Assembly (NCBI GenBank): GCA_964480515.1
Contig: CAYZOT010000005.1
Location: 18,674-82,673 of the forward strand
Source: an uncultured Gemmatimonadota bacterium
GTDB taxonomy: Bacteria; Gemmatimonadota; Gemmatimonadetes; Palauibacterales; Palauibacteraceae
DNA length: 64,000 nucleotides
Reading direction: 5' to 3'
Below are positions 1 to 50,333 of this stretch, piece after piece (the stretch's first letter is position 1; each line of letters opens with the position of its first letter). The notes under the pieces were generated by a model. That model was not told the DNA's origin, ran no database searches, and saw only the letters and a program-made list of their open reading frames with translations. Made by a program: the position numbers and the translations under genes.

Positions 1-351
1 GGCTCCTTCCTCAACTAAAGCTGCCAGGGAAGCTGCACCAAAGGCTTTGGAACACGATCCAATACTGAAGAGAGTATTCTCGTCGACCTGCGAGCTTTTC
101 CCGAGTTCGCGCACTCCGTAGCCTTTGCTGAGATAGGTCTCGCCATTATCAATGATCGCCAGTGTGAGCCCTGGCACATCCCAACGCTCTAGTCCTGCCT
201 CAACCCAAGCGTCAATCTCATCGATGGTGGGGCGGATGGTTTGAGCGAACGAGGCTGTTGCTGTTATGAGACCCAGCAAGGCCGCAGCCAATGATTGGCC
301 TGCGCGCGCCGGGGGTGTTTTTCGAAACAGTCGCTTTATACAGGGATACAT
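1..351 (-). CDS. Partial (N-terminal ~117 aa; continues beyond window start) secreted serine hydrolase of the beta-lactamase/penicillin-binding-protein-like family
   Basis: My own translation of the minus strand from the ATG at 351: MYPCIKRLFRKTPPARAGQSLAAALLGLITATASFAQ... (signal peptide), then ...NTLFSIGSCSKAFGAASLAALVEEGA with an S-x-x-K active-site motif (SCSK) in the class C beta-lactamase/D-aminopeptidase context F-x-IGS-x-S/T-K. An AGGAGG RBS overlaps the stop of the upstream PQQ dehydrogenase. Absent from the ORF track because the ORF is open at the window edge. Confidence 0.6.
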   Translation of the reverse strand, partial: MYPCIKRLFRKTPPARAGQSLAAALLGLITATASFAQTIRPTIDEIDAWVEAGLERWDVPGLTLAIIDNGETYLSKGYGVRELGKSSQVDENTLFSIGSCSKAFGAASLAALVEEGA

Positions 352-358
352 GTTCCTC

Positions 359-1966
359 CTAAGGGAGCCCGAAGACAAAGACGACGCCGCCAGCGGACGT
401 TACAATCCGCTGCTCGCCATCGATCTCGAAAGACATCGGATTGGTTCTTACCGCGCCACCGGCTTGGAAGTCCCACAGCGATTCGCCGGTGTCCGCGTCG
501 AGCGCGAAGACGTTGCCCTCTTCACTGCCACCGAAGACGAATCCACCGGCTGTTGCCATAAGCCCAGCCCAGGGTGGGGAGTGGAGAGGGAACTCCCATT
601 GAAGTTCTCCAGTCAGAACGTCGAGCGCGCGGATCGCACCGCTCGCCTCGTCTCCCCGCAGGGCTTGTTCTCCGCCGCCATAGAATGGTTGGCCCGGTTC
701 GTACTCTACGTCGGCTTTGTAGTAGACCGAGCCCATAATGCGAACGGCTTGGTAGAAGAGTTTTGTGTGGGGGCTATAACTGGGGCTGTACCAGTTAGCG
801 GCTCCCTGAAGACTGGGCCACACCAGCGTTCCCTCCTCAGTAGGCTCCGTATTTGGCAGGACAATGGGTCGTCCTGTGGTGTCGAGCCCTTCTGCCCAAG
901 TCTGTTTAGAGTAGGGGACACCGGTTAGGAACTCGCCTGTCTCACGGTCGAGTACGTAGTAGAAGGCATTTCGATTCGCCAGTGCTACGAGCTTACGTGG
1001 CTCTCCTTCCCATTCCAGATCAAAGAGAACGGGAATCTGGTTAGCGTCCCAATCATGTGTGTCGTGTGGAGTAAACTGGAAGTACCACTCTATCTCACCT
1101 GTGTCTGGGTCGAGTGCCAGAATACAGTTTGTAAATAGGTTGTCACCCGGTCGAAGGTCCCCATTCCAGTCGGGCGCGGGGTTACCTGTCATCCAGTACA
1201 ACAGATTCAGGTCTGGATCATAGGATCCGGTGAGCCAAGTAGATCCTCCTCCGGTCTCCCAGCTGTTACCACCCCATGTCTCACTCCCTGGTTCGCCGGG
1301 TTCTGGAATTGTGTATCTGCGCCAGAGGAGGTCGCCCGTCTCTGGATCGTAGGCATCGATGAATGCTCGTACCCCGGCCTCAGCACCTGACATTCCCACG
1401 ATCACTTTTCTGTCGAGCGCGAGGGGAGCCATGGTGATTGAGAAACCGATAGAGTTGTCCGCGACCTCTACATCCCACCTCACTGCGCCGGATCGAACAT
1501 CCAGTGCGACGAGGTGGGCATCTAACGTACCAACGAACAATGTTTCACCAAGGATTGCCACACCGCGATTCACTCGAGGGAACCCAATGTTCAGGACATT
1601 GGGTCTGATCTCGGCGTCCCACCTCCATAACCGCCGCCCAGTGCGAACATCGAGCGCACTCACTGAGCTAGGGGGTTCTGTTAGGTACATGATTCCATCG
1701 ACCACCAGTGGTGTTGTTTCGATCAGACCGCTGGGAACTTGATAGGCCCAAATTGTCCTCAAGCTTGCCACATTGGAGCGATCTATCTGAGTGAGGGATG
1801 AGAAGCGATGTGAGGCGTAGTTTCCAGAATATGTCAACCAGTTATGCGGCTCATTCTCCGCATTTCGCAATCGTTCGAAGGAGACCTGCGCAAAGATCGG
1901 GCTCGTTGTAGTTAGCCAGGCAAGACAAAGTAATGCGAGTGTAACACGGTGTGATCGACTGCTCAT
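359..1966 (-). CDS. PQQ-dependent dehydrogenase (methanol/ethanol quinoprotein family, 8-bladed beta-propeller), secreted
   Basis: 535 aa with an N-terminal signal peptide. The hallmark N-terminal quinoprotein motif NWLTYSGNYASHRFSSLTQI is present, with repeated W-containing propeller blades and a PHD-THDWD catalytic-Asp region. A strong RBS (AGGAGGT, 5-nt spacer) precedes the ATG. There is no vicinal Cys-Cys. Confidence 0.85.
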   Translation of the reverse strand: MSSRSHRVTLALLCLAWLTTTSPIFAQVSFERLRNAENEPHNWLTYSGNYASHRFSSLTQIDRSNVASLRTIWAYQVPSGLIETTPLVVDGIMYLTEPPSSVSALDVRTGRRLWRWDAEIRPNVLNIGFPRVNRGVAILGETLFVGTLDAHLVALDVRSGAVRWDVEVADNSIGFSITMAPLALDRKVIVGMSGAEAGVRAFIDAYDPETGDLLWRRYTIPEPGEPGSETWGGNSWETGGGSTWLTGSYDPDLNLLYWMTGNPAPDWNGDLRPGDNLFTNCILALDPDTGEIEWYFQFTPHDTHDWDANQIPVLFDLEWEGEPRKLVALANRNAFYYVLDRETGEFLTGVPYSKQTWAEGLDTTGRPIVLPNTEPTEEGTLVWPSLQGAANWYSPSYSPHTKLFYQAVRIMGSVYYKADVEYEPGQPFYGGGEQALRGDEASGAIRALDVLTGELQWEFPLHSPPWAGLMATAGGFVFGGSEEGNVFALDADTGESLWDFQAGGAVRTNPMSFEIDGEQRIVTSAGGVVFVFGLP

Positions 1967-2760
1967 GATCCACCTCCTAGGGTCACCAGGTATGCCACGA
2001 GGTCATCGACTTCCTCGTCGGTCATGTCCTGTGCGGCAGGCATCAGTGAATGGTCAAAGCGTTTTTCGAGTGATGTTAGATCAGCCTTTCGAAGCGAAAT
2101 TAACGACCCTGATACAGTCATCAGTTGAAGAGAAAAGGGGTCTTCATTGACACGCATACCATTGAGGACACGCCCTTCACGCGTTACTGCACGTACAGGT
2201 AGATACTGCGTGAATCCGTTCGCGGTTCCCCGACGAGTTGTTGGAAGGTCTGCTGCGGGATTCCGGAGTGATTCATATAGGTAATCGGCCCCACGTCGGA
2301 GTCCTAGATTGGTGAGTTCTGGCCCGACTGCTTTCCCTTGGCCATCGACGATGTGACAGGAATAACAGTCGCCGGCGCTCTGGAATAGATTGCGTCCGCG
2401 CTCTGCGTCACCTGGGATTTCGATCACTGCCGCTTCACCAAGCGACAATACAAAAGCGGCGACGAGGTCGGTCTCAAGTGCAGGTAGAAGAGTCGCACCC
2501 ACCCCTCCCATACCAGTACCCGCAATCCCGCGTCGGATCACTCGTACCATAGATGCGTGGTCCGGGGCTCGAGGTAGTGTCGGTCTGGCGAGGTTGGGCC
2601 CTTCGCCTCCGAGCCCAAGCATACCATGGCAACGTCCGCAGTGTGACTGGTAGAGGAGTCGTCCCCGTTCAAACCCGACTTCAGTCACCTCCAGCGGGTT
2701 CTGAGCTGAGACTCCACGGCCCAAGGCTAGACATAAGAGAGCCATGAAAATTAATCGCAT
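1963..2760 (-). CDS. Di-haem c-type cytochrome (probable electron acceptor of the downstream PQQ dehydrogenase)
   Basis: Two CxxCH motifs (CGRCHG and CYSCHIVDGQG). The start is placed at the internal Met giving the signal peptide MRLIFMALLCLALGRGVSAQ; the ORF-track start at 2844 adds 28 non-signal residues. The stop overlaps the PQQ-DH start (ATGA), so the two are translationally coupled. Confidence 0.7.
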   Translation of the reverse strand: MRLIFMALLCLALGRGVSAQNPLEVTEVGFERGRLLYQSHCGRCHGMLGLGGEGPNLARPTLPRAPDHASMVRVIRRGIAGTGMGGVGATLLPALETDLVAAFVLSLGEAAVIEIPGDAERGRNLFQSAGDCYSCHIVDGQGKAVGPELTNLGLRRGADYLYESLRNPAADLPTTRRGTANGFTQYLPVRAVTREGRVLNGMRVNEDPFSLQLMTVSGSLISLRKADLTSLEKRFDHSLMPAAQDMTDEEVDDLVAYLVTLGGGS

Positions 2761-3047
2761 TGCCGCGTCCTTTTGGGAGTGCAAACCCACGTCAACTCGT
2801 AGCGAACGTAGAGATTCGAAAAGTAAGTGGGCAACCCACCACAACCCTAATGTGTTTTCAGAGGAAGAGTTTTTTACGCTTCACTAAGGTGCCAACTCTG
2901 GTTGTTTCGGTGTCCACCGTTCGAGCCAATAAAGTTCCATAACATCACACCTCGCGGTAAACGTGGCACTTGATCGGTATTGTCCGATCTGGTGTTGAGC
3001 AATAGTGATTGGAGTGAACCAAGCTGACTCTCTATCGGGGGGAAATC

Positions 3048-5024
3048 GTGGTTAGGACTTTATACATGTGGATCTTGAGCCCCGTCGTTATGTGTTCGAT
3101 TGTGCTTCTGGCTTGTGAAGGGTTTCCTTCGCCGTTACGAGGCCCAAGCCTTCCGCTCACACTTGAGAATATCTATCGGGTCGGAAGTGGCGCGGGTCGA
3201 TCGGTTCTTTCACCTGATGGTCAGAGGGTTGCCGTATCCGGGTCAGGCAAAAAAGGCCCGGGTGTTTATGTCTCCTTAATTGGTGAGGCTGATACCCAAT
3301 GGGAACTGTTGGCGCAGGGTGCCTCGCAGGTGTGGTCCCCGGACGGCACAAAGTTGGCCTTTACCCATAATGCTGGGCTGCACATCGCAAGTTTGGGGTC
3401 CAAAGAAAAAACTGTAGTGGACGGAATTTCGGGCATACGTACACCGTCGTGGTCACCGAATGGACATACCATTGCATTCTACTCGACTCAGTCCGGTTTC
3501 CAGGACATTTGGCTTGCATCAGATGATGGATCGATGCCACTGCGCCAACTTACCCGCGAAGCCGCGGAGGCGGACGACGGTCGGTTTACCCCCATGTGGT
3601 CTCCCAATGGCCAGTGGATAGCCTTCATCTCGAATCGTGCAGACTGGTGGCACGACGATGTTTGGTTGGTAGATGTCGTATCTGCCGAGGCTTATAGGGT
3701 GTCTGAGTTTTTAATGGCTTCGTCGAGCCCCGTGTGGTCCCCGGACGGTCAGAGTCTCGTGATCATGGGGACTGCTAAAGATGAATATTGGTACGAAGAT
3801 CTTTCTTATCTATATCGCATTGACCTGGATTTCACAGGTAAAACCCCACGCACGGTGCGGGAGGCTCCAATTGAGATGCAAGTTTACGCCTCTGATTACA
3901 TCATGCGCTTCGATCCATTCTGGTCAGGCGATGGAAATCGAGTCTACTTCCCATATCATGAGCGAGGGGCGTTTGATTTGTGGGCTGTCCCCGCAGACGG
4001 TGGTGTGGCAACACGCGTCACGAATATAGGAGGTTCATGGGCATCGTTAGATGCGACCCCTGATGGGTCTCGTGCCGTATTCACTCGAGACGCTCCGACT
4101 GAAGGGAGAGAGTCGTGGCTGATTGACCTTGAAGGTGGCTTGCCTCGCCAGTTGACAGACTTCTCACCTCACTTCGCGGAAGTTCAGCAGCCAACGGAAA
4201 TTTCGTTCCGCACGTTCGATGGACTCTATCTTCAAGGATTCCTCTACCTGCCTCCCGCGATTGTCGGTGGTTCGGGTGCGTTGCAAGATTTTCTGAAACG
4301 TCAACCGCCGGGAGATTACGCAGGCCCTGCTTGTCCCGCGTTAGTCCAAGTGCATGGTGGTGGGACAAACTCGTACTACCAGGGGACAAATCTGACCGAA
4401 CAGTACCTGGCTTCGCGTGGATTCGTGGTTCTCGCGATCAACTACCGCGGCGGGTCTGGATTTGGGCGTGACTTTCAGGACCTTTCGATTGAGGATTGGC
4501 TGAATGACCAATCGAAGGATCCAGGTGCCGCATCAGACTGGCTAAGAGCGCAGCCATGGGTCAGTGAGAACGTTGGCATTTACGGAGGCAGCTATGGTGG
4601 TATGCAATCCATGTCTGCCATTACGCGTACACCCGACAAGTTTGATGCGGCGGTTCCAATGCGTGGCATTTACTCCGAAACGCTGACACTCCCATACGCT
4701 GATCGGCTCGGGAAAATCTTTACGATCACGGGGCATGGGGGCACGCCCGAAGAACGGCCCGAGATTTACGCGAAGACTGAAACACTTGACCGGATGGACC
4801 GGATCACGGCTCCGGTACTCATTATGCACGGTGAACATGATGTGCGCGCACCTTTCGAAAATTTCAGTCTCGCCGTCGAGCGATTAGAGACGCTGGGCAT
4901 GGAATTTGAATCGATGACCTACCCTGAAGGGCATGGCTTCCGGGACCCCGCAAATTCGATCGATATGTACTCGCGTCTCGAGACGTTTTTCCGCAAACAT
5001 TTGGGCGAGTGTGTCGCAGGGTAG
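3048..5024 (+). CDS. S9 family serine peptidase (prolyl oligopeptidase/acylaminoacyl-peptidase-like) with N-terminal TolB-like WD40 propeller
   Basis: Repeated WSPDG/SPDG propeller motifs in the N-terminal half. The C-terminal alpha/beta-hydrolase part carries the nucleophile elbow GGSYGG (GxSxG), a catalytic Asp region HGEHDVRAP and a His region PEGHGF. Confidence 0.8.
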   Translation: MVRTLYMWILSPVVMCSIVLLACEGFPSPLRGPSLPLTLENIYRVGSGAGRSVLSPDGQRVAVSGSGKKGPGVYVSLIGEADTQWELLAQGASQVWSPDGTKLAFTHNAGLHIASLGSKEKTVVDGISGIRTPSWSPNGHTIAFYSTQSGFQDIWLASDDGSMPLRQLTREAAEADDGRFTPMWSPNGQWIAFISNRADWWHDDVWLVDVVSAEAYRVSEFLMASSSPVWSPDGQSLVIMGTAKDEYWYEDLSYLYRIDLDFTGKTPRTVREAPIEMQVYASDYIMRFDPFWSGDGNRVYFPYHERGAFDLWAVPADGGVATRVTNIGGSWASLDATPDGSRAVFTRDAPTEGRESWLIDLEGGLPRQLTDFSPHFAEVQQPTEISFRTFDGLYLQGFLYLPPAIVGGSGALQDFLKRQPPGDYAGPACPALVQVHGGGTNSYYQGTNLTEQYLASRGFVVLAINYRGGSGFGRDFQDLSIEDWLNDQSKDPGAASDWLRAQPWVSENVGIYGGSYGGMQSMSAITRTPDKFDAAVPMRGIYSETLTLPYADRLGKIFTITGHGGTPEERPEIYAKTETLDRMDRITAPVLIMHGEHDVRAPFENFSLAVERLETLGMEFESMTYPEGHGFRDPANSIDMYSRLETFFRKHLGECVAG

Positions 5025-5233
5025 TTTATGCGCCGGACGCGAATGTGGTTTGCGATTTAGAAGATGAGTGAAGTCGTGTGCTGATTACCATCGTGCGGGA
5101 GCCCTGTGACGATTCGGTCAGACGGTCGCGAACCGTGGGGCAGGAGTCGTAGGTGTGGCTCTTGACGCATAGGCCGACATGCTGCCCGATACGGGTGAAT
5201 CTCGTCAAGAAAATTCAAACATGGAACACTAGA

Positions 5234-7705
5234 ATGAAACGAAGATCACTTTTTCTTATCGTTGTGCTCGCAACCTTCTTTTGCATGACAGCCCGCCCGA
5301 TATCTGTCGACGGCCAATGGAAGGCCCGTTATCCGAAAGTCGATGGGTACAATCACCACGTATACCTGGAAGGGTATGAGCTTCCATTCCTTACGAACGG
5401 TCCCATCGATCCTGCACCATCGCCGGACGGCGATCGGGTGGCCTTCTCCGCGCGAGGTTGGATCTGGGTCATGGATTTAGAGACAAGCTCTGCGCGTCGG
5501 CTGACTATGGGGCCAGACATGGATTTTCGCCCCGCATGGTCACCCGACGGCCGTATGCTAGCGTTCGTGAGGGACAATGATCACGACACCTCGATTATGT
5601 TCATCGACAGTGACTCGGGTGCCGAGCTGGGCCAAGTAGATTCTCCCGCGCTCGAACTTGATCCGGCATTCTCCGCAGATGGCACCTTACTCTTCTATTC
5701 TTCAGCGGAAGAGGGTGACCTGGATCTTTGGGCGATTAACATCGTCAGCCACGAAAAACGCCGTGTCACGTCAGATGAAGGAATCGAGCTCCGCCCTCAA
5801 CCTGGAGCAAACTCGTTAGTCTACCTTAAAAAGGGATCCCGGATCTCGGATCAAGTGGTGCTCCGAGTCCCTGGAGTTGATACTCCCCGGATCTTGATCC
5901 AGGGTAAAATCGCGTCGATGGCGCGTCCGGCATTAAGCCCCGATGAGTCCACCATTGCACTGAACTGGCCTACACAAGATGGGTGGGAACTTCGTCTGCT
6001 GAATGTTGATGACCCAGGACCCTCGATTCTTCTTGCCTCTGGAGGGCTCCCGCTAACCCCTGCTTGGAGTGCCAATGGAGAGTGGATCTACTTTTCTGAA
6101 GCGGATGAACGTGAACGGATGAGGCTAAAGCGAGTTCGTGGAATAGGCGGCCCGATAGAGGTGGTGCCTGTTCTCAGCTGGGAATGGGGAGAACCAACGT
6201 CAACGGTCCGTGTCCGCACGGTGTTCGAATCCGGCGGTGCTCCCGTGCCTGCTCGCCTGAACGTACTAGACGCGCGCGGGCATCCGATTATCCCTGCGGA
6301 GACGGCCGCTCGATTCGATGGGGAGAGTGGGCGCGTCTTCTTCTACTCCCCCGGTGTAATCGAACTTTCCGTCCCAGGAAGAGTTGCTACAGTGTCGGCA
6401 GTTCAAGGGCTTGCCACGCCTGAAGTCACGGAGAGCACCGATCTCGGACTACAAGGGGTCACTGAACTTGAAATTGTCCTTTCACCTCTTTGGGATGCGC
6501 GTGCTGCAGGGTGGACTTCAGGTGAGCATCATTTCCACCTCAACTACGGTGGCCCGTACGACCTCTCACCGTCTGATCTTGTGCCGATAATGAAGGGTGA
6601 AGCACTTGATCTGGCGACCCCGTTGCTTGCAAACCTTCATAATCGATTTGAGGACCAGGATCTTTGGCGTTGGCAGAAGTCTGATCAAGCCCCGTTGATC
6701 CGCTTTGGCCAGGAGGTACGTGCTCATTTTTTAGGACACGTGGGGTTGATTGGTATCGACGAGCTATTTTGGCCTTGGGTTTGGGGCCCAGTTGGATCCG
6801 AGGTGTATGGCTCGGATGACCGAGAGAATGCTGAAGCGCTTTCTCATGCCCGATCGCAGGGCGGGTTGGGTTATTATGTACATCCGGTCAGTCCTAATAG
6901 ACCAAAAGAAGCGGCCCCTTGGGCTGAGCTGCCATTCGCCGAACTCATGCCGAATATTCCCCTTGAAATCGTCGCAGATGCGGTCTTGGGGGATCTTGAT
7001 GCGCTTGAGGTAGTATGCCTTTGGAGCGATGAGGTGAGTACGGCCCAACTCTGGCACCGGTTTCTCAACCTCGGCATCCCGGTGGCTCCCTCTGCCGGTA
7101 CGGATGTTATGACTAATTTCTATCGTACGATGGCTCCGGGTACGGCACGGGTGTACGCTCAGACGGGCGATGTACTGAACTGGCCCACATATCTGGATGC
7201 ACTGCGTCACGGTCGTTCTTTCGTGACGAATGGCCCGTTTCTCGACTTCCGTATCGGAGGAGGTACCCCTGGCGATGTCATATCAGCGGGCGCTGCGGAA
7301 TGGGAGTTGGATCTCCTCACTGCCTCGGGCGTTGATCAAGTCGATCTGATCGTGAATGGTGAAGTTGTTTGGTCTGAATCTGGTATTGAATCAGCCGGTT
7401 CTCGAAAGTATCAGGGCAAAATCGAACTTCCCGAAGGAGGCTGGGTTGCGATCCGAGCCCTTGGGGGAGAAGCAAATTGGCCGAGCATGGCTAACTATCC
7501 GTTCGCGCATACTGGGCCGGTGTGGATCAAGGCGGTTGGGAGCACAGATCAACAGGCCAGAACTGCCGCGGCACAGGAGCTGATGCAAGTCCTAGCACTA
7601 GGAGAGGGACGACTGATCCAGGGCTATCGCGATGCGGACATTCCAAACCTTCTCGCCCGCTTTGCTGAGGCGCGTTCACGCCTGGAGACTTTAGCTGTTC
7701 CTTGA
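5234..7705 (+). CDS. TolB-like beta-propeller fused to a putative metal-dependent hydrolase domain (PHP/CehA-McbA-like, HxH motif)
   Basis: Start moved to the internal ATG at 5234, which gives the signal peptide MKRRSLFLIVVLATFFCMTA (the ORF-track start 5153 adds 27 aa). The N-terminal half has PSPDGDRVAF/WSPDGRMLAF/FSADGTLLF TolB-type repeats. The C-terminal half has EHHFHLNYGG followed by spaced His/Asp/Glu residues typical of binuclear metallohydrolases. The family assignment of the C-terminal domain is uncertain. Confidence 0.5.
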   Translation: MKRRSLFLIVVLATFFCMTARPISVDGQWKARYPKVDGYNHHVYLEGYELPFLTNGPIDPAPSPDGDRVAFSARGWIWVMDLETSSARRLTMGPDMDFRPAWSPDGRMLAFVRDNDHDTSIMFIDSDSGAELGQVDSPALELDPAFSADGTLLFYSSAEEGDLDLWAINIVSHEKRRVTSDEGIELRPQPGANSLVYLKKGSRISDQVVLRVPGVDTPRILIQGKIASMARPALSPDESTIALNWPTQDGWELRLLNVDDPGPSILLASGGLPLTPAWSANGEWIYFSEADERERMRLKRVRGIGGPIEVVPVLSWEWGEPTSTVRVRTVFESGGAPVPARLNVLDARGHPIIPAETAARFDGESGRVFFYSPGVIELSVPGRVATVSAVQGLATPEVTESTDLGLQGVTELEIVLSPLWDARAAGWTSGEHHFHLNYGGPYDLSPSDLVPIMKGEALDLATPLLANLHNRFEDQDLWRWQKSDQAPLIRFGQEVRAHFLGHVGLIGIDELFWPWVWGPVGSEVYGSDDRENAEALSHARSQGGLGYYVHPVSPNRPKEAAPWAELPFAELMPNIPLEIVADAVLGDLDALEVVCLWSDEVSTAQLWHRFLNLGIPVAPSAGTDVMTNFYRTMAPGTARVYAQTGDVLNWPTYLDALRHGRSFVTNGPFLDFRIGGGTPGDVISAGAAEWELDLLTASGVDQVDLIVNGEVVWSESGIESAGSRKYQGKIELPEGGWVAIRALGGEANWPSMANYPFAHTGPVWIKAVGSTDQQARTAAAQELMQVLALGEGRLIQGYRDADIPNLLARFAEARSRLETLAVP

Positions 7706-7742: not shown

Positions 7743-8180
7743 GTGGTGAAGCGATCGATCGCTCTTGTGATAGAAGATCTAACGGAAGAGGGCATTCGCT
7801 GGTTGCTGGTGCGCCGCCCTCCGGATGATCACGACCTCCCGAATATTTGGGGTTTGCCCGCTGGTTCACACCGGGAAGGCGAAACGGAGGAGGCGCTTGT
7901 CGCTCGGATTGGACACGACAAGCTTGGTGTCGAACTGTCATCATCTATTGAGCTGCTAGCGGAAGGTTCAGATAGCCGGACAGAGGGCGAACTCGTTATG
8001 CGGCTATACTCCGCGAGTATTGTCTCCGGACAGCCTGAGGTGCCACAGGCGATTACAGGAGTAACTCAATACACCGAGTGGGCATGGGGGCTCTCCGAAG
8101 ATCTTGTTGCCGGTGCCTCCTGTGGTTCCCTGTGCTGTGAGCTGGGATTAGATCTGGTTTCCGGGACTGACGGAACGTAG
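7743..8180 (+). CDS. Small Nudix-like hydrolase (degenerate Nudix box)
   Basis: 145 aa. WLLVRRPP...WGLPAGSHREGETEEALVARIGHDKLGV resembles the Nudix fold and box (Gx5Ex7REUxEExGU) but with substitutions, so the call is weak. Confidence 0.35.
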   Translation: MVKRSIALVIEDLTEEGIRWLLVRRPPDDHDLPNIWGLPAGSHREGETEEALVARIGHDKLGVELSSSIELLAEGSDSRTEGELVMRLYSASIVSGQPEVPQAITGVTQYTEWAWGLSEDLVAGASCGSLCCELGLDLVSGTDGT

Positions 8181-8183
8181 GAA

Positions 8184-9452
8184 ATGAATAGATATGAGAC
8201 TCTAGACCTTCCGAAGGCCCACAAGATATCTCACCCCCCCTTCTGTTCTTTTTTTGGCTATTATGACAAATGCCCCTGGGACGAAACCAATCGATATCTG
8301 TTGGGTCATCGCGTTGATCGGACGAGCACCCCGACCGATCATGGCTCGATCGTTACCGTCGGTCACTATGATCTTGAGGATGGCAATCATTTTACTCCTC
8401 TAGCGGAAACGACGAGTTGGAATTGGCAGCAAGGGGCAATGCTGCAATGGCTCGAGACGAGCCCTACAGACAAGGTTTTGTTCAATCGTGCTACCGACTG
8501 CGGATACCAAACTGTCGTCTGTGACCTCAAGAACGGACATGAGAGGACGGTTGATAAACCGCTTGTTGCTGCCTCTCCTCGCGGAGACTTCATCTTGTCC
8601 TATGATTTTTCGCGGCTGGCTGTTACCCACCCCACCATTGGCTATTTCACTCATCCAATAGCTCGGAACCTTGAGAAACAACCGTCCGACGATGGGCTCT
8701 TCTGCGTTGACTTGAGGAGTGGCGAGGAGAGCCTGATCCTCAGTTATGCTGCTGCGGCTTCTCTTCAACCCTTGCCGTCAATGAACAGCGCGATCCATTG
8801 GTTTACCCACGCGGCAGTAAACCCAACTGGGACCCGGATACTCTTCTTGCACCGTTGGACGAAACGGGTGGAGGATGAAAATCAGTGGTTCCACCGTCTG
8901 ATCACCGCGAATCCGGATGGCAGCTCAATCGCTATCCTTCAAACCAGTGAGCATCCTGCCCCGAGCGGCGATGAGGGAAGTGATTGGACCTATGCGTACG
9001 AAGAAAACGCTAATCAGATATCCCACCCAGTCTGGGTCGGCGCGGACCACATCTTGGCATGGTCTACCCGCGGGGAGCGCAGTCGATATCATCTCTACAC
9101 CGACCGGTCCTCTGACGTCGAAGAAATAGGTGGCGACACTCTTCGACAAAATGGGCATTTCACGATTAGCCCAAACAAAAAATGGCTACTGAGCGACACC
9201 TATCCAGATCCAAGCAACTCTTGTCGTAGCCTGTTCTTATTTCATTTGACCGAAAGACGGACCGTTCCACTCGGGGACTTCTTTTCTGATCCACACTTAG
9301 CAAAAGAAGCGCGGTGTGATTTGCATCCACGCTGGCGGCGGGACGGGCAAGCGGTTTGCATCGATTCGGTACACGAGGGAGATCGACAACTCTACACCAT
9401 TGACGTCTCACACCTAGTAGATACTCCTTTGCGAGAACCACGCCGACCTTAG
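8184..9452 (+). CDS. Oligogalacturonate-lyase-like (Ogl/PF14583-type) beta-propeller protein
   Basis: 422 aa. The N-terminal FGYYDKCPWDETNRYLLG resembles the Ogl N-terminus (Y-x-KCF-x-x-DG-x-LLFG). The C-terminal CDLHPRWRRDGQAVCIDSVHEGDRQLYTIDV resembles the Ogl C-terminal THPHPSF-x-DDKQILFTSD segment. Based on recalled Ogl sequences only; moderate confidence. Confidence 0.45.
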   Translation: MNRYETLDLPKAHKISHPPFCSFFGYYDKCPWDETNRYLLGHRVDRTSTPTDHGSIVTVGHYDLEDGNHFTPLAETTSWNWQQGAMLQWLETSPTDKVLFNRATDCGYQTVVCDLKNGHERTVDKPLVAASPRGDFILSYDFSRLAVTHPTIGYFTHPIARNLEKQPSDDGLFCVDLRSGEESLILSYAAAASLQPLPSMNSAIHWFTHAAVNPTGTRILFLHRWTKRVEDENQWFHRLITANPDGSSIAILQTSEHPAPSGDEGSDWTYAYEENANQISHPVWVGADHILAWSTRGERSRYHLYTDRSSDVEEIGGDTLRQNGHFTISPNKKWLLSDTYPDPSNSCRSLFLFHLTERRTVPLGDFFSDPHLAKEARCDLHPRWRRDGQAVCIDSVHEGDRQLYTIDVSHLVDTPLREPRRP

Positions 9453-11507: not shown

Positions 11508-13637
11508 TCACCATGGCCACTCAGGTTCACCTTCCGGTGAAGCCACGGAGTTGCGTGCGTTTGCAACGATATAGGCATGGATGAGGCGAACTTGATCCGA
11601 GTTCAGCAAACCTTCGTATGAGGGCATCCCTTCTACTTCTCGTGTTCCTTCAAGGACGATGTTTTCAAAGTTCCGGTGAACGACTGCAGTGGCCCGCTGG
11701 AGATTGGGCATAGCGCCTTCCGATGCGCCCCGTGCTCCATGACAATGAGCACAATAGCCACTGAAGAGTTCCCCTCCCTGAACTAAGCTCGCTTCATCGG
11801 TCGGGAGGTCTAAGTCAGGTGCGAAAAATGGACGCTTGGTGCGGGGCAGAGGCATGGGAGCAGCACCGTTAAGTGCGAACGTGAATACGCGCCCCTTCTG
11901 TTCGTATTTGTTTGCCTCTCCGTATGGCGCTCCGCTTCGACCCCGGGCACCTCCCCAACCAGCGGCCACCGATACATACTGTTGGTCATCGACGGTGTAG
12001 GTTATTGGACCGCCGAGGATTCCAATGTTAGTTGCTGTCTCCCAAAGCTGTTCGCCTGTATCTGCGTCGTAGGCAACGAACCGACCGTCACCACCGCCTT
12101 GGAAAACGAGGCCTGTCGAGGTCGTCATGGTCCCACCGTTCCAATACCCAGCCAGCGGAACTGTCCATCTCGCCTCTTGAGCTTTCGGATCCCATGCTAC
12201 CAGGAAGCCCGGGGCGTCCGAGCCATCAGCGTACGAGCGGGCTCGGCTCTGGTGCCCGAGATTGTTGACCGCGGGTCCGTAATTGTGATCCTCGATATTA
12301 AGTTCAGTATACTCCCACCCCTCAATTTCACTACGCTCGACCCATCCTTCCTGGATGGGAATGTACATGAGCCCCGTCTTGTGATTGAATGATTGTGGTT
12401 GCCAGTTATGACCGCCAAGAGCAGCAGGTGTAATCATGGTCCAGTCGAAACCATGAACCGCTTCGGACTGCTCGACAGGACGACCTGTCTCTAAATCGAG
12501 GCCTTCTGCCCAGTTAAGTGTGATGTAGGGTTGTCCCGAAAGAAACTCGCCGGTCTCCGCGTCAAGCACGTAGAAGAAGCCGTTCTTGGGTGCCTGCATG
12601 ACTACACGACGCATCTGTCCATCGAACTCGATGCTGCCAACTGTTATTGGTTGAACGGCCGTGTAGTCCCAGTGGTCGCCAGGGGTCGTCTGGAAATGCC
12701 ACACGTACTCACCAGTTGCGGGTCGGACTGCAAGGATTGAAGCAAGAAAGAGGTTGTCACCTCCACCTGGACTCCGAAGATTTCGGGACCACGGTGACCC
12801 ATTTCCTGTCCCGATGTAGAGAAGGTCAAGTGTTGGATCATAAGCGAAGGCATCCCAGGCAGTGCCACCACCGCCCGCGATCCACCACTCGCCACTCCAA
12901 GTCTCGGCGGCCATTTCAAGAGCTTCTGACTCAAAGCCATCTGCCGGGTTCCCTGGGACGGTATATGTTCGCCAAACCAATTCGCCACTTCTGGCATCAT
13001 ACGCTGAGACATATCCTCTCACTCCGTACTCAGCTCCCCCGTTTCCAATCACAACCAACCCTTGTACAACTCGTGGTGCACCAGTGATTGAGTAGGGCTC
13101 ATCCTGGTTAACCGTGAGAGCCTCCCAAACAGGCTCTCCCGTATCGGCATCAAGTGCGACCAGCCGTCCGTCAATCGTACCTACGAAGATTTTCCCCTCG
13201 TACATAGCCACGCCGCGGTTCACTACATCGCAGCACGCGAGCCGGCCACGGATCCGAGGTACGCCCGGGTCATGACGCCAAATTCTTTCCCCCGTACGGA
13301 CATCGATCGCGTGCACAACGCTCCACGGTCCACTCGTGTACATTACGCCGCCCGCTACGAGTGGTGTCGCTTCAACACCACCTCGGAGTTCAAAGTCGTA
13401 ACTCCAGACTAGGCCCAGTTGATCGACGTTTCCCTTGGTGATTTGTTCGAGCGTGCTGTATCGGTCTTCGGCGTAGTTGCCTCCATAGGTCAACCAGTCA
13501 CCATCCGGCGTTGCACTCTCGAGTACGGCATCATCGACAGCGCTCGCACCTTCCAGGCGCACATCTTCTGGTGTGCTTTGCATTTCGCAAGATGAAATTG
13601 CAATGAGAAAGACTGCGACCAGATAGTGAAAACGCAT
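11508..13637 (-). CDS. Quinohaemoprotein PQQ-dependent alcohol dehydrogenase (type II-like: PQQ propeller + C-terminal cytochrome c domain)
   Basis: The N-terminal quinoprotein motif DWLTYGGNYAEDRYSTLEQI is present, with a vicinal Cys-Cys (GRLACCDVVNRG) and the catalytic region PGDHWDYT. The C-terminal domain has CAHCHG (CxxCH) plus a downstream Met (GMPSYEG). Start moved to the second ATG (MRFHYLVAVFLIAISSC, lipobox-like), which has a GGGAGA RBS; the ORF-track start is 13661. Confidence 0.85.
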   Translation of the reverse strand: MRFHYLVAVFLIAISSCEMQSTPEDVRLEGASAVDDAVLESATPDGDWLTYGGNYAEDRYSTLEQITKGNVDQLGLVWSYDFELRGGVEATPLVAGGVMYTSGPWSVVHAIDVRTGERIWRHDPGVPRIRGRLACCDVVNRGVAMYEGKIFVGTIDGRLVALDADTGEPVWEALTVNQDEPYSITGAPRVVQGLVVIGNGGAEYGVRGYVSAYDARSGELVWRTYTVPGNPADGFESEALEMAAETWSGEWWIAGGGGTAWDAFAYDPTLDLLYIGTGNGSPWSRNLRSPGGGDNLFLASILAVRPATGEYVWHFQTTPGDHWDYTAVQPITVGSIEFDGQMRRVVMQAPKNGFFYVLDAETGEFLSGQPYITLNWAEGLDLETGRPVEQSEAVHGFDWTMITPAALGGHNWQPQSFNHKTGLMYIPIQEGWVERSEIEGWEYTELNIEDHNYGPAVNNLGHQSRARSYADGSDAPGFLVAWDPKAQEARWTVPLAGYWNGGTMTTSTGLVFQGGGDGRFVAYDADTGEQLWETATNIGILGGPITYTVDDQQYVSVAAGWGGARGRSGAPYGEANKYEQKGRVFTFALNGAAPMPLPRTKRPFFAPDLDLPTDEASLVQGGELFSGYCAHCHGARGASEGAMPNLQRATAVVHRNFENIVLEGTREVEGMPSYEGLLNSDQVRLIHAYIVANARNSVASPEGEPEWPW

Positions 13638-13759: not shown

Positions 13760-15775
13760 ATGAAGACGGTGGCGGTTATTCTGATCAGCGTCCTTGTCAG
13801 CACGGTTCAAGCGCAGGAAAGCGATCACTTTACGGATATGGACGTCTTTGGTCTTGAGTGGGTGGCTAATCCCCAAATCTCGCCCGACGGAGGTTATGTA
13901 GCCTACGTCCGAACTTCACTCGATGTTATGCAAGACCGGAAACGATCTGAGATCTGGATTATCGAGTCGGGCGGCTCAGCCCATCGTCGAGTCGCTGCTG
14001 GTAGTTCGCCGATCTGGTCTCCTGCCGGTGACAAGATGGCTTACGTGAGTGACGGACAGATACACGTTCGATGGATGGACACGGGCGAGACGGCCACACT
14101 AACTCAATTGCTCAAATCGCCAAGGGCGATTTCCTGGTCACCGAACGGACAACACATCGCTTTTAATATGTTGGTGCCGTATCCGGCTCCAAGCCTTATC
14201 GATCCACCTAGTCCTCCCCCAAACGCGACATGGGCCGACCCGCCAATCATGGAAGATCGATTTAAGAACCGTCAGGATGGCGTAGGCTATCTTGATTTTG
14301 GTTATGATCACCTGTTCGTCGTGTCGGTGGAGGGTGGTACAGCTGTTCAGGTGACTAGTGGTGATTACCAACACAGTGATGGGGCGGTATGGACACCTGA
14401 CAGTAAGCACCTCGTGTTCTCGTCGAATCGCACCGAAGACGCCGTACACGATTACCGGAATTCTGAACTCTACATGGTTTCAATCGTCGACCAAAGCGTT
14501 ATCAGGTTAACGGAGAGGGCAGGGCCTGATCACAGTCCAGTTGTTTCGCCTGATGGCCAGCACATTGCGTTCTTGGGTTTTGACGATCGTATTCGCACCT
14601 ATCAGGTCACACAGTTGCACGTGATGGATCTTGATGGCGGCAACAAGCGAGTGCTCACAGCTGATCTCGACCGGAGCGTATCGAGTCCTGTTTGGTCAAC
14701 TGATGGGAATGGAATTTACTTCCAGTATGATAGCGAGGGGAACTCGAAGATCGCTTTCATGGATCTCGACGGCGACGTCGAGATCTTGGCTCATAATGTT
14801 GGTGGAACTTCCTATGGGCGACCGTACGGAGGAGGAGCGTTTAGTGTGGCCAACGATGGGCGTTTCGCGTTCAACCAAACACGTCCTGAGTATCCGGGTG
14901 AGTTGGCGGTTGGGTTCAGGGATGGTTCGGTGCCTCGGCGTATCACGAATTTAAATGACGATCTACTCGCCGGAAAACGACTTGGTCAGGTTGAGGAGAT
15001 TTGGTGGGAGTCATCTTTTGACCAACGTCTTATCCAGGGTTGGATAGTAAAACCTCCTGACTTCAATTCCGATCGGCGCTATCCACTAATTCTTGAGATT
15101 CACGGAGGCCCCATATCGAACTACGGCGATCGTTTCTCTGCCGAAATGCAATTGTTGGCGTCGTCAGGGTACGTTGTCCTCTACTCCAACCCCAGAGGTA
15201 GCACGAGCTATGGGGAAGAATTTGGAGATCTGTTGTACCATAACTATCCCGGGAATGACTATGATGACTTGATGTCTGGAGTAGACGCGGTCATAGACCT
15301 CGGCTACATCGATGAAGACAACCTGTTCGTAACGGGCGGAAGTGCTGGTGGAATCATGTCAGCTTGGATCATTGGGAAAACTGATCGATTTCGGGCTGCG
15401 GCAGCTCAAAAACCGGTGGTGAATTGGTACAGCAAAGTGCTGACTGCGGACAACTGGTTTGGGTATTTCAACTCTCGGTATGAAGGACTTCCTTGGGAGG
15501 ACCCTGAAAACTACCTCAAGTTCTCACCCATTTCGTTGGTAGGTAACGTCACGACACCCACGCTTATAATTACAGGAGAAGAAGATCTTCGTACCCCTCT
15601 GTCCGAGTCGTATCAACTCTTTCATGCACTGAAGCTCAGGAAGATCGATACAGCAGTGGTGCGTTTGCCGGGAGCTTCTCACGATATGAGTCGTCGACCG
15701 AGTCAGCTCATCGCGAAAGTTGCTAACATTGTGGCCTGGTTCGACCGGTACCGTGGGCAGCGGGTGACAAGTTGA
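13760..15775 (+). CDS. S9 family serine peptidase with TolB-like propeller (close paralogue of the 50334..52415 gene)
   Basis: Signal peptide MKTVAVILISVLVSTVQAQ and GAGGAGG RBS. Contains WSPAGD/WSPNGQ/SPDGQ repeats, EIHGGPISNYGDRFSAEMQLLASSGYVVLYSNPRGSTSYGEEFG and the GxSxG nucleophile elbow GGSAGG. Confidence 0.85.
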   Translation: MKTVAVILISVLVSTVQAQESDHFTDMDVFGLEWVANPQISPDGGYVAYVRTSLDVMQDRKRSEIWIIESGGSAHRRVAAGSSPIWSPAGDKMAYVSDGQIHVRWMDTGETATLTQLLKSPRAISWSPNGQHIAFNMLVPYPAPSLIDPPSPPPNATWADPPIMEDRFKNRQDGVGYLDFGYDHLFVVSVEGGTAVQVTSGDYQHSDGAVWTPDSKHLVFSSNRTEDAVHDYRNSELYMVSIVDQSVIRLTERAGPDHSPVVSPDGQHIAFLGFDDRIRTYQVTQLHVMDLDGGNKRVLTADLDRSVSSPVWSTDGNGIYFQYDSEGNSKIAFMDLDGDVEILAHNVGGTSYGRPYGGGAFSVANDGRFAFNQTRPEYPGELAVGFRDGSVPRRITNLNDDLLAGKRLGQVEEIWWESSFDQRLIQGWIVKPPDFNSDRRYPLILEIHGGPISNYGDRFSAEMQLLASSGYVVLYSNPRGSTSYGEEFGDLLYHNYPGNDYDDLMSGVDAVIDLGYIDEDNLFVTGGSAGGIMSAWIIGKTDRFRAAAAQKPVVNWYSKVLTADNWFGYFNSRYEGLPWEDPENYLKFSPISLVGNVTTPTLIITGEEDLRTPLSESYQLFHALKLRKIDTAVVRLPGASHDMSRRPSQLIAKVANIVAWFDRYRGQRVTS

Positions 15776-21243: not shown

Positions 21244-23388
21244 TTAGCTGTTCAGGGTGACTGAGACCCCAGGGCTTGGGGTCTCCAGGTTTCCGGTGTC
21301 ATCCACTGCACGGCTTAGTAGGGTGCTGGATTTACCGTCTGGAACAGGTGACCATTCAAAGCTCCAATTTTCTCGACCATGAGCGGGATGCCAAGTAGCA
21401 CCGCCATCGGTCGATATCTCGACGCCAGCAACGATGCCGCCGCCGCTATCCGATGCGCTTCCGCGAATCGTGATGTTGCCGTTTACAGGGGAACCTTCTG
21501 ACGGAAATTCAATTGAAGATCTTGGCGTAGTCGCGTCCGTCGACGCCGTAGCCGGAATTAGATCAGACTGCATAGTGGTGGGCTGAACCCCCATGTCGGC
21601 GAACAGGTTCAACGTTGCCTGTTGAATGTTTCGGTCTGGACCGTTGGGATCCTCACCGACTCGAGTGGAAAACCCGTTTTGTCGTTCTGGAGGAACTCCT
21701 GTTTCTGTGTCGTGATTAGCATCTAACCCCCACGCCCATTGCAGCGTGCCAGATCCAAATACTAGTGCTCCACTCTCATGGCGGTACATGACAGCGTTGT
21801 GGGTCGCCGATGCTGCTTGGCACGCGTCCATAGCCGGATAACCGCACCAGTAAGTGTTTGTCACAGTCGTAGATGAGACTTGAAACAGACCTGGCGGACG
21901 GAAGTTGTTGTCCATGTCTGAATCCCACTCATGGCCAAGCATTCCCTTAATGGAAACAAAGCGTTCCCCAGGGCCAAGATTGGCCACCTCGGTGTTTCGC
22001 CAAAAGCGGAGTTTTGAGAATTGTTCGTCGGCGATTAACGGGTCGTTCCGCCAGGCGTTGACGGTGAAGAGTGTTCCGATTAGCGCATTTTCTGGCCACG
22101 GGCCCTCTGGATTCATGGATCGGTGATCACGGAATGTCCCCGTCCAGATGCCAGGCTCCGGGTCCATCTTCGTTGCGCCGTCCGGTTCCTTATAGGTGAC
22201 TAGGGTCCGGTACGGTTGGCCTGACCCGTCAATGCTTTCTTCCCATCGCACTTTCCAGAAGACCGCATTTGAGCTAAAGAATGCTAGATGGATGCCGGCA
22301 TCTCGTGCTGCTTCAACATTCCGACGTTGTTTTCCCGTCCAATACTCATCGTGTCCGACAGCCATGAAGACTTTATGCTCGAGGAGTTCGTCACCAAGAC
22401 GTTCTACATCCACACCAGTTATGTAACTTACATCGTACCCATTTCGTTCGAGCCATCGTACCATGGGGTATTCTGAGTTGAATACTGCATTTACGGCCCG
22501 ATAGTGGCGTGTCTCAAACGGTCGGTTGTAGCTGACCTTGTAGGCGCGCGGCTCACCACCGTGTAACCGGTCTCGCACCGGATTGTACTGGCCGTACACG
22601 CTGTGTCCGCCAAACCGGTTGTATGCCTGCCATGTTATGTCCGAAGTCTGAAATAGCATTTCAGATGCCCCCTCATCGTCTCGGACGATGAAGTAGATAT
22701 GACTAGCGCGAGGTTCTACCAGGGCGTTTTCCGAGCTTCCTCTTAACCGATCCCAGAGTGGGTCACCTTCTGCGCCCAGGGGAAGGTCTTGTGGTGCAAA
22801 AGCATCATTGGGCCACCATTCACCCTCTAAGGGGTCCTCGCGAACCAGTCGTGCAAAATAGATGCCTGAGGTCGCGTCAGTCGGCGTATCCCAAGATGCT
22901 GAAACAGCCCAGTTACCACAGTCGAAGAGGGGGGCCTCCGCGGTTACCACAGCACCGGCCTCGTTCAACACGGGAATGGGGGCGTTCAAACAATCGGGCT
23001 GAACCTGTGGTAGTGTTGCAGAGGGCTCAATTGTGTCAATTCGCCGAGCTCCCATGCCTCCATAGTAACCCATACGGTAGATGTCGATTCGATAATCATC
23101 GGAATCAGTATCAATCTTAAAATGGATGGTCTCTCCTTGAGCGATGCCGATCTCATGACCAAAGCCTTGGATGCTTGGGTCACCATACCCATTGATGTCC
23201 CATTCCGTCGATGGTGCCCCAGGTAGGCAGTTTTCTGCGACAATTTCATTGGCTGGTGCCAAGCAGTGGTTTGCTTCTGATACTGTGGTGGCACAGGCAA
23301 AAAAGAGTGGCGTCAGCACAATGGCGGAGATAGTAGGCTTTGTAGTCATCTGAAAAACATCCTGTTGGACGAAGGAGCGTTGGTCCAC
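21244..23388 (-). CDS. Secreted protein resembling the N,N-dimethylformamidase large (beta) subunit-like family, with C-terminal Ig-like domain
   Basis: 714 aa with a signal peptide. Motifs recalled from DMFase-beta-like family proteins are present: TWQAYNRFGG and GHDEYWTGKQRRNVEAARDAGIHLAFFSSNAVFWKVRW. The C-terminus ITIRGSASDSGGGIVAGVEISTDGGATWHPA looks Ig-like (Big-type). Family assignment is from memory of motif patterns only. Confidence 0.4.
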   Translation of the reverse strand: MDQRSFVQQDVFQMTTKPTISAIVLTPLFFACATTVSEANHCLAPANEIVAENCLPGAPSTEWDINGYGDPSIQGFGHEIGIAQGETIHFKIDTDSDDYRIDIYRMGYYGGMGARRIDTIEPSATLPQVQPDCLNAPIPVLNEAGAVVTAEAPLFDCGNWAVSASWDTPTDATSGIYFARLVREDPLEGEWWPNDAFAPQDLPLGAEGDPLWDRLRGSSENALVEPRASHIYFIVRDDEGASEMLFQTSDITWQAYNRFGGHSVYGQYNPVRDRLHGGEPRAYKVSYNRPFETRHYRAVNAVFNSEYPMVRWLERNGYDVSYITGVDVERLGDELLEHKVFMAVGHDEYWTGKQRRNVEAARDAGIHLAFFSSNAVFWKVRWEESIDGSGQPYRTLVTYKEPDGATKMDPEPGIWTGTFRDHRSMNPEGPWPENALIGTLFTVNAWRNDPLIADEQFSKLRFWRNTEVANLGPGERFVSIKGMLGHEWDSDMDNNFRPPGLFQVSSTTVTNTYWCGYPAMDACQAASATHNAVMYRHESGALVFGSGTLQWAWGLDANHDTETGVPPERQNGFSTRVGEDPNGPDRNIQQATLNLFADMGVQPTTMQSDLIPATASTDATTPRSSIEFPSEGSPVNGNITIRGSASDSGGGIVAGVEISTDGGATWHPAHGRENWSFEWSPVPDGKSSTLLSRAVDDTGNLETPSPGVSVTLNS

Positions 23389-25227: not shown

Positions 25228-26067
25228 TCAGTAGCTAAGACACTCTGGTCCTTCGCCTCGAACCCACGCGGCAAGCATCTGCCATTCCGGATCATCTTTG
25301 GAGGCCCAACGGCGAGGACCGCCGTGAAAACCGTCACCGCCGTCTTCAGAGGAAAGCGGGTGGGTAAGGAATCGGCTGAGCATTGGATGCCCGGGCTCGA
25401 TGTATCGCCGGACGATTGCAAAGTTCCCTCGAGATTCCTCTTGATTCCAGAAGTCTCGATCCTCTGGGATCCTGCGTGCAAAGTTTCGCGCCCCGCTATC
25501 GTGGCAGTGAACACACTCAACATCACCCGGTCGCTTATCTAAGAAAATCCGCTGTACACATTCCTGAAAGAACTGAAAATCTAACCGCGGTGGGGTGTCG
25601 TTGGGGCTTGGATTAACTGGGTCCGCTGCCTGAACCCATTTAGCCATCGCCTGCCATTCGGGGTCGGTTTGAGACTCGAAAAACTTGCCCCCCACATGAA
25701 AAGGAGATCCTCCGGAAGATACGACCAGTGCTTTACGGAGGAGCCTGCTCCGTGCTGGATTTCCAGGGGTCACGAGCCTTGAGACGATCTGAAAATTTTG
25801 GCGTGATTGTTCTTCAGACCAAAACACTGTTCCGTCAGGATTTTCGTTCAGTGCTTGGAGCCTAAGTGGAGTGCCTTGCTCTGCATGGCAGGTGACACAG
25901 GGGGCTCGTCCAGGACCATAGCCACCACGGGATGCGAGAAAGATTGGTTCGACCACCTCTCGGTACTGTTCGAAGCTTAGTGGTTCCTGGGCCGTACCAT
26001 TGTCGACAATGCTGAACACGAATAAGACCAGAGCCCCGCAGAAGAGCTTATTGGGATCTCTAATCAT
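25228..26067 (-). CDS. Di-haem c-type cytochrome, secreted
   Basis: 279 aa with a signal peptide and two CxxCH motifs (CVTCHAEQG and CVHCHDSG). The start overlaps the stop of the upstream YVTN-propeller gene (ATGA). Confidence 0.6.
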   Translation of the reverse strand: MIRDPNKLFCGALVLFVFSIVDNGTAQEPLSFEQYREVVEPIFLASRGGYGPGRAPCVTCHAEQGTPLRLQALNENPDGTVFWSEEQSRQNFQIVSRLVTPGNPARSRLLRKALVVSSGGSPFHVGGKFFESQTDPEWQAMAKWVQAADPVNPSPNDTPPRLDFQFFQECVQRIFLDKRPGDVECVHCHDSGARNFARRIPEDRDFWNQEESRGNFAIVRRYIEPGHPMLSRFLTHPLSSEDGGDGFHGGPRRWASKDDPEWQMLAAWVRGEGPECLSY

Positions 26068-27116: not shown

Positions 27117-27260
27117 CTTGGTCCCCCCTAAGTTTATGATGGAGTGGCGCCCAGTTTTGCGTGCCATGAACTCCACTTGAATCCAACGTCTCAATATGGT
27201 TGTGCGATTAGAGTAGGGTAGTTGGCCGGAATGTCGGTAGGCCAGCCCTCGGTTCTTGGA

Positions 27261-37712: not shown

Positions 37713-37746
37713 AGTGTTTAGGTACCCTTTTTGGGGTACAGATCGG

Positions 37747-50223: not shown

Positions 50224-50333
50224 GCCCGGATATCTGAGTGGCAGCAACTTACTAGGGAAGCGGAATGGCGCTATTGTGGATGGACTGCACAGATGAGGTG
50301 TCCGCACAAAATGAATATCATTCTGGAGGTATC

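Follow-up and report, generated by a model that had tools for sequence, protein, structure and literature searches.

A PQQ dehydrogenase with a lanthanide-type aspartate pair and no vicinal disulfide, paired with its own di-haem cytochrome c, in an uncultured Gemmatimonadota bacterium

Positions 359 to 2760 of the stretch of DNA analysed here (the window; 64,000 nucleotides of contig CAYZOT010000005.1, GenBank assembly GCA_964480515.1, from an uncultured Gemmatimonadota bacterium of the family Palauibacteraceae) encode a dehydrogenase of the pyrroloquinoline quinone (PQQ) type, hereafter PQQ-DH, and a di-haem cytochrome c. On balance, the two genes are best read as a self-contained periplasmic oxidation module, in which a lanthanide-dependent PQQ-DH would deliver its electrons to the di-haem cytochrome. 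The enzyme combines an Asp placed two residues after the catalytic Asp with the loss of the vicinal Cys-Cys pair, and both features had been pointed out in an initial annotation of the window. To that annotation it can be added that the cytochrome gene is the upstream and the PQQ-DH gene the downstream member of the pair, both being on the minus strand. The parts of this two-gene unit are the following:

2760..1963, minus strand: di-haem cytochrome c gene, 265 amino acids counted from the ATG
1966..359, minus strand: PQQ-DH gene, 535 amino acids
1963..1966, minus strand: ATGA junction, where the TGA of the cytochrome gene overlaps the ATG of the PQQ-DH gene by 4 bp, with GGAGG 8 nt upstream
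1580..1585, minus strand: G128-F129, where characterised PQQ alcohol dehydrogenases of types I and II have the vicinal Cys-Cys disulfide, from alignments
1379..1381, minus strand: E196, the metal-ligand Glu, in the motif SGAEAGVR, invariant in alignments
1181..1183, minus strand: N262, the metal-ligand Asn, in the motif TGNPAP, invariant in alignments
1046..1054, minus strand: D305-W306-D307, the catalytic Asp followed two residues on by an Asp at the lanthanide-coordinating position of XoxF, ExaF and PedH, from alignments
2640..2626, minus strand: haem-binding motif 1 of the cytochrome, CGRCH (C41 to H45), read from the sequence
2367..2353, minus strand: haem-binding motif 2 of the cytochrome, CYSCH (C132 to H136), read from the sequence

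The ATGA overlap suggests translational coupling of the cytochrome and the PQQ-DH. Although the mechanical list of open reading frames (ORFs) opens the cytochrome at a TTG at 2844, which would add 2761..2844 on the minus strand, the ATG at 2760 is the more likely start, as it is followed by a typical signal peptide and matches the end coordinate of the initial annotation.

By using profile searches, it was found that the PQQ-DH matches PF01011 of Pfam with 285.9 bits (cut-off 26.7) and TIGR03075 of NCBIfam, the PQQ-dependent dehydrogenases of the methanol/ethanol family, with 531.7 bits against a cut-off of 480.05. The protein carries a Sec-type signal peptide (residues 1-26) and no transmembrane domain besides. 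Its AlphaFold2 (AF2) model is an eight-bladed beta-propeller with a predicted local distance difference test score (pLDDT) of 84.5 and a predicted template modelling score of 0.88, and the top 27 PDB matches of this model in Foldseek, with query-normalised template modelling scores (TMq) of 0.85-0.90, are all PQQ alcohol, methanol or sorbose dehydrogenases. The nearest solved relative, by sequence in phmmer as well as by fold in Foldseek, is PedH (376 bits, TMq 0.90, 37-38% identity). Residues E196, N262, D305, R134, W244 and R332 line up with their counterparts in known PQQ enzymes.

The distribution of the pair was followed in a species-level scan of one GTDB genome per species, which yielded 80 loci, all from metagenome-assembled genomes (MAGs), of which 78 were usable for residue conservation. 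These loci come from Longimicrobiales/'Candidatus Palauibacter' (77-81% identity), Woeseiaceae, Pseudomonadales (Pseudohongiella and OM182 included), Acidobacteriota, Planctomycetota and Opitutaceae. In all 78 usable loci E83, R134 (the Arg of VNRG), E196, W244 (the stacking Trp), N262, D305, D307 and R332 are invariant, and for the Asp pair this invariance extends over at least five phyla.

The metal question depends on D307. Through four pairwise phmmer alignments, it was observed that the catalytic segment of the window enzyme aligns without gaps to those of PedH, XoxF5, ADH-IIB and the membrane alcohol dehydrogenase (ADH), which are given below together with the second PQQ-ADH paralogue of the window:

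window PQQ-DH: PHDTHDWDAN
PedH (lanthanide): PHDGWDFDGV
XoxF5, 6DAM (lanthanide): PHDEWDYDGI
ADH-IIB, 1KV9 (Ca): PGDSWDFTAT
membrane ADH, 8GY2 (Ca): PMDEWDYTSV
13637..11508, minus strand: second PQQ-ADH paralogue, of the type II quinohaemoprotein kind; it reads D-Y-T, bears Cys-Cys and carries a fused cytochrome c (motif CAHCH) at its C-terminus

A MAFFT alignment of 94 sequences gave the same register, with D307 on the lanthanide-coordinating Asp, while the Ca-type enzymes, the second paralogue included, have Thr at this position. The D-x-D pattern, which the initial annotation had read from a short ungapped alignment, is thus borne out by these alignments, and neither Ala nor Asn stands at the lanthanide position. 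Likewise, no characterised Ca-dependent member was found alongside the PQQ-DH in its clade, the nearest solved relative being a lanthanide enzyme. Because D307 sits two residues past the catalytic Asp, the metal is probably a light lanthanide rather than Ca2+, as judged from sequence. The experimental background of this marker lies in mutants and comparisons of known enzymes: the D320A variant of XoxF1 loses both La binding and activity, the D319S variant of ExaF loses its function in vivo, and PedH has an Asp where the Ca-dependent PedE has Ser295, a difference that prompted assays of PedH with rare-earth metals. It is by now standard practice to call lanthanide dependence from D-x-D, and an ocean survey that examined 6,328 PQQ dehydrogenases in this way found the motif in 61% of them, spread over 14 of 33 phyla.

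The second paralogue aligns to 1KV9 over its full length with 664 bits. Its D-Y-T, its Cys-Cys and its CAHCH motif agree with its earlier description as a Ca-type enzyme with a fused cytochrome c, so that the window, as far as signatures go, would encode one lanthanide-type and one Ca-type PQQ-ADH wired to different cytochromes, as had been proposed.

The absence of the vicinal Cys-Cys, also proposed earlier, was confirmed at the residue level. Where the second paralogue reads RLACCDVVNRG, the PQQ-DH reads NIGFPRVNRG, and the alignment with a sister clade that bears Cys-Cys (ICCGRNNRG) places the substitution exactly at Cys-Cys to G128-F129. The loss defines a clade at 60% identity or more, while the sister clade, at 52-56% identity, retains the pair. 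The disulfide ring is regarded as conserved among alcohol-oxidising quinoproteins, and ExaA has been reported to need it in order to pass electrons efficiently to cytochrome c550, so that a cytochrome-linked enzyme without the disulfide is unexpected. To our knowledge, every characterised cytochrome-c-linked PQQ alcohol dehydrogenase has the vicinal disulfide over PQQ. Given that the clade keeps its cytochrome partner, the missing disulfide is the more surprising of the two unusual features.

Neither feature is an accident of one sequence. Among the 120 closest database proteins (66-80% identical), 116 retain both PHD[TVL]HDWD and IGFP.VNRG, and since the Asp pair is in addition invariant in the 78 loci, the combination of D-x-D with Cys-Cys loss is not a matter of chance. 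At a greater distance, cluster representatives at 50% identity were searched exhaustively, and of the 84 full-length nearest relatives 72 have D-x-D, 38 of these being also without Cys-Cys; neither D-x-D nor Cys-Cys loss is unusual among environmental sequences.

The cytochrome, of class I, is composed of an N-terminal domain of the PF13442 type in Pfam and a C-terminal domain that matches TIGR02603 of NCBIfam, a 'putative haem-binding domain', and it is preceded by the signal peptide MRLIFMALLCLALGRGVSAQ. Across the homologues upstream of PQQ-DH genes, C41, C44, H45, M84, C132, C135, H136 and M240-P241 are at least 97% conserved, and M84 and M240 are the likely axial haem ligands. The protein belongs neither to the cL/MoxG family (22.1 bits with the MoxG hidden Markov model, cut-off 147.8) nor to the c550/PedF family (20.5 bits with the PedF model, cut-off 122); its nearest solved relative is 7ZS0, an uncharacterised di-haem protein, with 44 bits, and its homologues carry in the databases just the name 'c-type cytochrome'.

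A homologous di-haem cytochrome gene, in the same orientation, directly precedes that of the PQQ-DH in 74 of the 80 related loci. Four of the six exceptions are at contig ends, one locus (L052) is seemingly disrupted and one (L077) has no cytochrome. A 4-nt overlap of stop and start codon recurs in 44 related loci, and in most of the others the genes are 1-2 nt apart; the gene pair persists while the flanking genes vary between lineages (eight contexts inspected, seven of them other than the window and taken from L001-L008). Among more distant relatives, 8 representative clusters carry the whole di-haem unit as an N-terminal fusion with the PQQ domain. One example is P0124 (774 amino acids), whose alignment to the window cytochrome covers 256 positions with 32% identity (E 2e-26). 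A mono-haem N-terminal domain is present in about 20 further representatives. An apparent cytochrome-PQQ fusion at 3073..5727 of locus L067, a Vicinamibacteria MAG, was rejected as an artefact, its translation revealing a frameshifted cytochrome and, in DNA of high GC content, a long out-of-frame ORF that is spurious; an assembly indel or a pseudogene probably lies behind it. With the pair in 74 of 80 loci and N-terminal fusions in relatives, the coupling of dehydrogenase and cytochrome claimed in the initial annotation is real, and the PQQ-DH very probably donates its electrons to the co-encoded di-haem cytochrome. As the sister clade with Cys-Cys has the same cytochrome upstream, the partnership is older than the loss of the disulfide.

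A neighbour-joining tree was built from the nearest representatives, PedH, ADH-IIB and the second paralogue, without XoxF sequences. It places the window PQQ-DH in a large 'HDWD' group, named for P-H-D-x-H-D-W-D, apart from the branch that holds PedH and the type II quinohaemoproteins. Within the group, P0128, P0153, P0155, P0158 and P0191 have Gly for the catalytic Asp (HGWD, HGFD, HGWG) and keep the propeller, and most of these Gly-substituted members retain an N-terminal mono-haem domain; these proteins may be quinohaemoproteins with changed or lost catalytic activity.

Comparison with known systems places the unit close to PedH/ExaF ('ADH type 2b'; PDB 6ZCW and 6ZCV), with which it shares the propeller, the Glu/Asn/Asp/Asp residues of the metal site in register (D-F-D against D-W-D), the periplasmic location and, as a prediction for the window enzyme, a c-type cytochrome as acceptor. 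PedH differs in having the Cys-Cys ring, W-D-F-D instead of H-D-W-D and GGE instead of GAE, in its branch of the tree, and in its partner, the mono-haem c550 PedF, outside whose family the window cytochrome stands. With XoxF (6DAM, 4MAE) the enzyme has in common a D-x-D that aligns without gaps and a dedicated cytochrome gene adjoining the dehydrogenase gene, but the similarity is lower (274-292 bits, 27-34% identity), Cys-Cys is present in XoxF, the partner of XoxF is the cL-like mono-haem XoxG, and a xoxJ-like gene is absent at the window locus. Although XoxF3 has been reported in Gemmatimonadetes, the PQQ-DH is unlikely to be XoxF3, its matches to solved XoxF structures being weaker than those to PedH or ADH-IIB among the solved structures compared.

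The type II quinohaemoprotein ADHs ('ADH type 4'; 1KV9, 1YIQ and 1KB0), the second-best PDB match with 358 bits, are alike in that a PQQ propeller is wired to a class I cytochrome c. They differ by a C-terminal single-haem fusion, a Ca-type D-[FY]-T and Cys-Cys, none of which is found in the window PQQ-DH, whose cytochrome is separate, di-haem and encoded upstream, with fusion at the N-terminus in relatives. Cytochrome c domains are recurrently joined to PQQ propellers in polyvinyl-alcohol dehydrogenase and other cytochrome-bearing PQQ enzymes as well, a likeness by description, not by sequence. The haem domain of polyvinyl-alcohol dehydrogenase is N-terminal, like the mono-haem fusions of the HDWD group.

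The top-scoring curated model for the PQQ-DH is TIGR04528, 'acido-empty-quinoprotein group A', with 551 bits, below the cut-off of 650. Membership in this family was rejected, the window enzyme and ten close representatives being all under the cut-off, while the more distant P0210 passes it with 762 bits. This true member shares PHDTHDWD, which makes TIGR04528, a family without an experimentally defined function, a sub-branch of the HDWD group. A further likeness, by published description, is offered by quinoproteins of heterotrophic marine Thaumarchaeota, which are without Cys-Cys and of which some have DYD or DxD; they differ in being archaeal and mostly predicted to be membrane-anchored, in hosts without cytochrome c for which another acceptor has been proposed (Aylward & Santoro, 2020). 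In the literature searched, there was no description of a bacterial clade that combines Cys-Cys loss, D-x-D and a dedicated upstream di-haem cytochrome, fused in relatives, and the genome paper on Palauibacterales leaves PQQ, lanthanides and alcohol dehydrogenases unmentioned.

A working model of cofactor occupancy, substrate class and the direction and route of electron flow can be proposed. Exported to the periplasm by its Sec signal peptide, the PQQ-DH would hold PQQ and the active-site metal through E196, N262 and D305, with R134, W244 and R332 around the cofactor, and would oxidise a substrate of the alcohol type. PQQH2 would then give its two electrons singly to the co-translated di-haem cytochrome, both haems of which would be His/Met-ligated, and the latter would hand them to the aerobic respiratory chain. 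Over PQQ, G128-F129 would stand in place of the disulfide, and the Phe ring may take on a stacking role; since the vicinal disulfide is missing, electron transfer to the cytochrome would have to proceed without the disulfide ring.

Several observations weigh against this model and feed the alternatives to it. The one that deserves most attention, although it is on the unlikely side, keeps the architecture and the electron path and holds that the metal is Ca2+, or the site promiscuous, the second Asp being a feature of the lineage. The D-x-D marker has been validated by experiment only in the XoxF and ExaF/PedH clades, and no characterised member was found in the clade of the window enzyme or in the wider HDWD group; the same motif has been reported in the membrane glucose dehydrogenase (mGDH) of E. 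coli, which works with Ca or Mg. The surroundings of the site are also of mixed character, for the Glu ligand has Ala195 before it (GAE), a residue shared with the Ca-type ADH-IIB and the second paralogue where PedH has GGE, and at -1 and +1 of the catalytic Asp stand His304 and Trp306, whereas all validated lanthanide enzymes read W-D-[YF]-D. The geometry of the model cannot arbitrate here: pLDDT falls to 54-71 at the active-site loops (residues 121-130, 261-280 and 301-310), and because these loops are only moderately confident the metal-site assignment rests on alignment. Pfam recognised no gene of lanthanide uptake or handling (lut/ped transporter, lanmodulin) among the main ORFs of the window (at least 150 amino acids beyond the first 16 kb), and in seawater lanthanides stand at about 1e-11 M and Ca at about 1e-2 M. 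Yet 61% of the ocean PQQ dehydrogenases bear the motif despite this scarcity, the enzymes of the methanol/ethanol family with a D307-type Asp in the literature compilation and the studies of XoxF1, ExaF and PedH examined are all lanthanide-dependent, and La binding is abolished once the Asp is removed. The constancy of D307 across phyla and the closeness to PedH point in the same direction.

That the cytochrome is a mere neighbour, for example a part of another respiratory branch, with the electrons passing to quinone, azurin or another cytochrome, is improbable. The loss of Cys-Cys would suit it, given the role reported for the disulfide in the transfer to cytochrome c550 and because membrane glucose dehydrogenases are also without the disulfide and reduce ubiquinone, as would the position of the cytochrome outside the two families of known partners. 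Against this stand the pairing itself, which is maintained in variable surroundings, the overlapping codons, the same cytochrome in the sister clade that bears Cys-Cys, the relatives in which the complete di-haem unit and the PQQ domain form a single polypeptide, and a PQQ-DH without a transmembrane domain beyond its signal peptide. Very improbable is an 'empty' quinoprotein, that is a propeller without PQQ in a host unable to make it, with a binding or regulatory role, for example. This idea draws on TIGR04528 as the nearest curated family, whose name, the only source for this, points to hosts that lack PQQ synthesis and whose true member P0210 has the motif of the window enzyme, on the loss of the catalytic Asp in some HDWD relatives (HGWD, HGFD), and on the fact that Pfam recognised no PQQ-biosynthesis gene in the same set of main ORFs. 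But the PQQ-contacting and metal-binding residues are all invariant in the clade, the pairing and fusion with a c-type cytochrome make sense only for a redox enzyme, and the PQQ-DH scores under the cut-off of TIGR04528 and over that of the PQQ-DH family; the 64 kb are, moreover, a small fraction of the genome. PQQ can also be scavenged from the environment.

Around the two-gene unit, the gene that follows the PQQ-DH opens 8 nt past its stop codon:

1..351, minus strand: start of a serine hydrolase of the beta-lactamase family (PF00144), with SCSK as its SxxK motif; the gene leaves the window

This serine hydrolase is probably co-transcribed with the PQQ-DH, and it could hint at an ester-derived alcohol as the substrate. 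It was not accepted as a third conserved gene of the module: it lies downstream of the PQQ-DH only in the Palauibacter-type loci L001, L010, L011 and L015, and is a lineage-specific neighbour. A scan of 1..3200 for promoters and terminators gave counts no higher than in shuffled sequence.

The rest of the window is rich in peptidase genes, with five paralogous genes of PD40 repeats and S9 prolyl-oligopeptidase and one PD40-only protein (3048..5024, 5153..7705, 13760..15775, 28535..30658, 35565..37808 and 50265..52415); the same enrichment is seen in the related loci L001 and L005, and it points to a peptide-scavenging lifestyle. The type II ADH gene is about 12 kb away from that of a YncE-like seven-bladed beta-propeller (26064..27194, minus strand; PF21783, E 2e-10), which adjoins neither PQQ gene. 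Further genes include a full-length B12-dependent methionine synthase (MetH; 42971..46687, plus strand), directly followed by a fused homocysteine S-methyltransferase-methylenetetrahydrofolate reductase (46688..48544, plus strand), and a protein of 714 amino acids (21244..23388, minus strand) with a bacterial Ig domain and a C-terminal domain like the beta-subunit of N,N-dimethylformamidase (PF20254, 319 bits), whose gene adjoins those of a class IV aminotransferase and a BNR/sortilin-repeat protein. Five ORFs of 145-422 amino acids (8184..9452 and 49726..50223 and 7743..8180, plus strand; 25228..26067 and 48668..49621, minus strand) had no Pfam match at the thresholds used.

Beyond the single locus, it is tentatively proposed, at something less than even confidence, that a widespread clade of cytochrome-c-linked lanthanide PQQ-DHs has dispensed with the disulfide ring and uses an undescribed class of dedicated di-haem acceptor. 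The hosts of the Cys-Cys-less clade are marine Gemmatimonadota, Woeseiaceae, Pseudomonadales, Acidobacteriota and other groups. The value of the proposal is tempered by the fact that motif-based lanthanide calls have been published for thousands of ocean PQQ-DHs, that both features are common in environmental relatives and that the evidence comes from sequences. If the signature holds, the PQQ-DH would represent a lanthanide enzyme beyond the validated XoxF and ExaF/PedH lineages, in abundant uncultured marine bacteria. If the proposal is true, the electrons would take a different route from PQQ to haem, and the sister clade that bears Cys-Cys and the clade that lacks it, which share the same partner, would provide a natural experiment; in that case, the transfer from PQQ to a c-type cytochrome without the disulfide would bear on the long-debated role of the disulfide ring.

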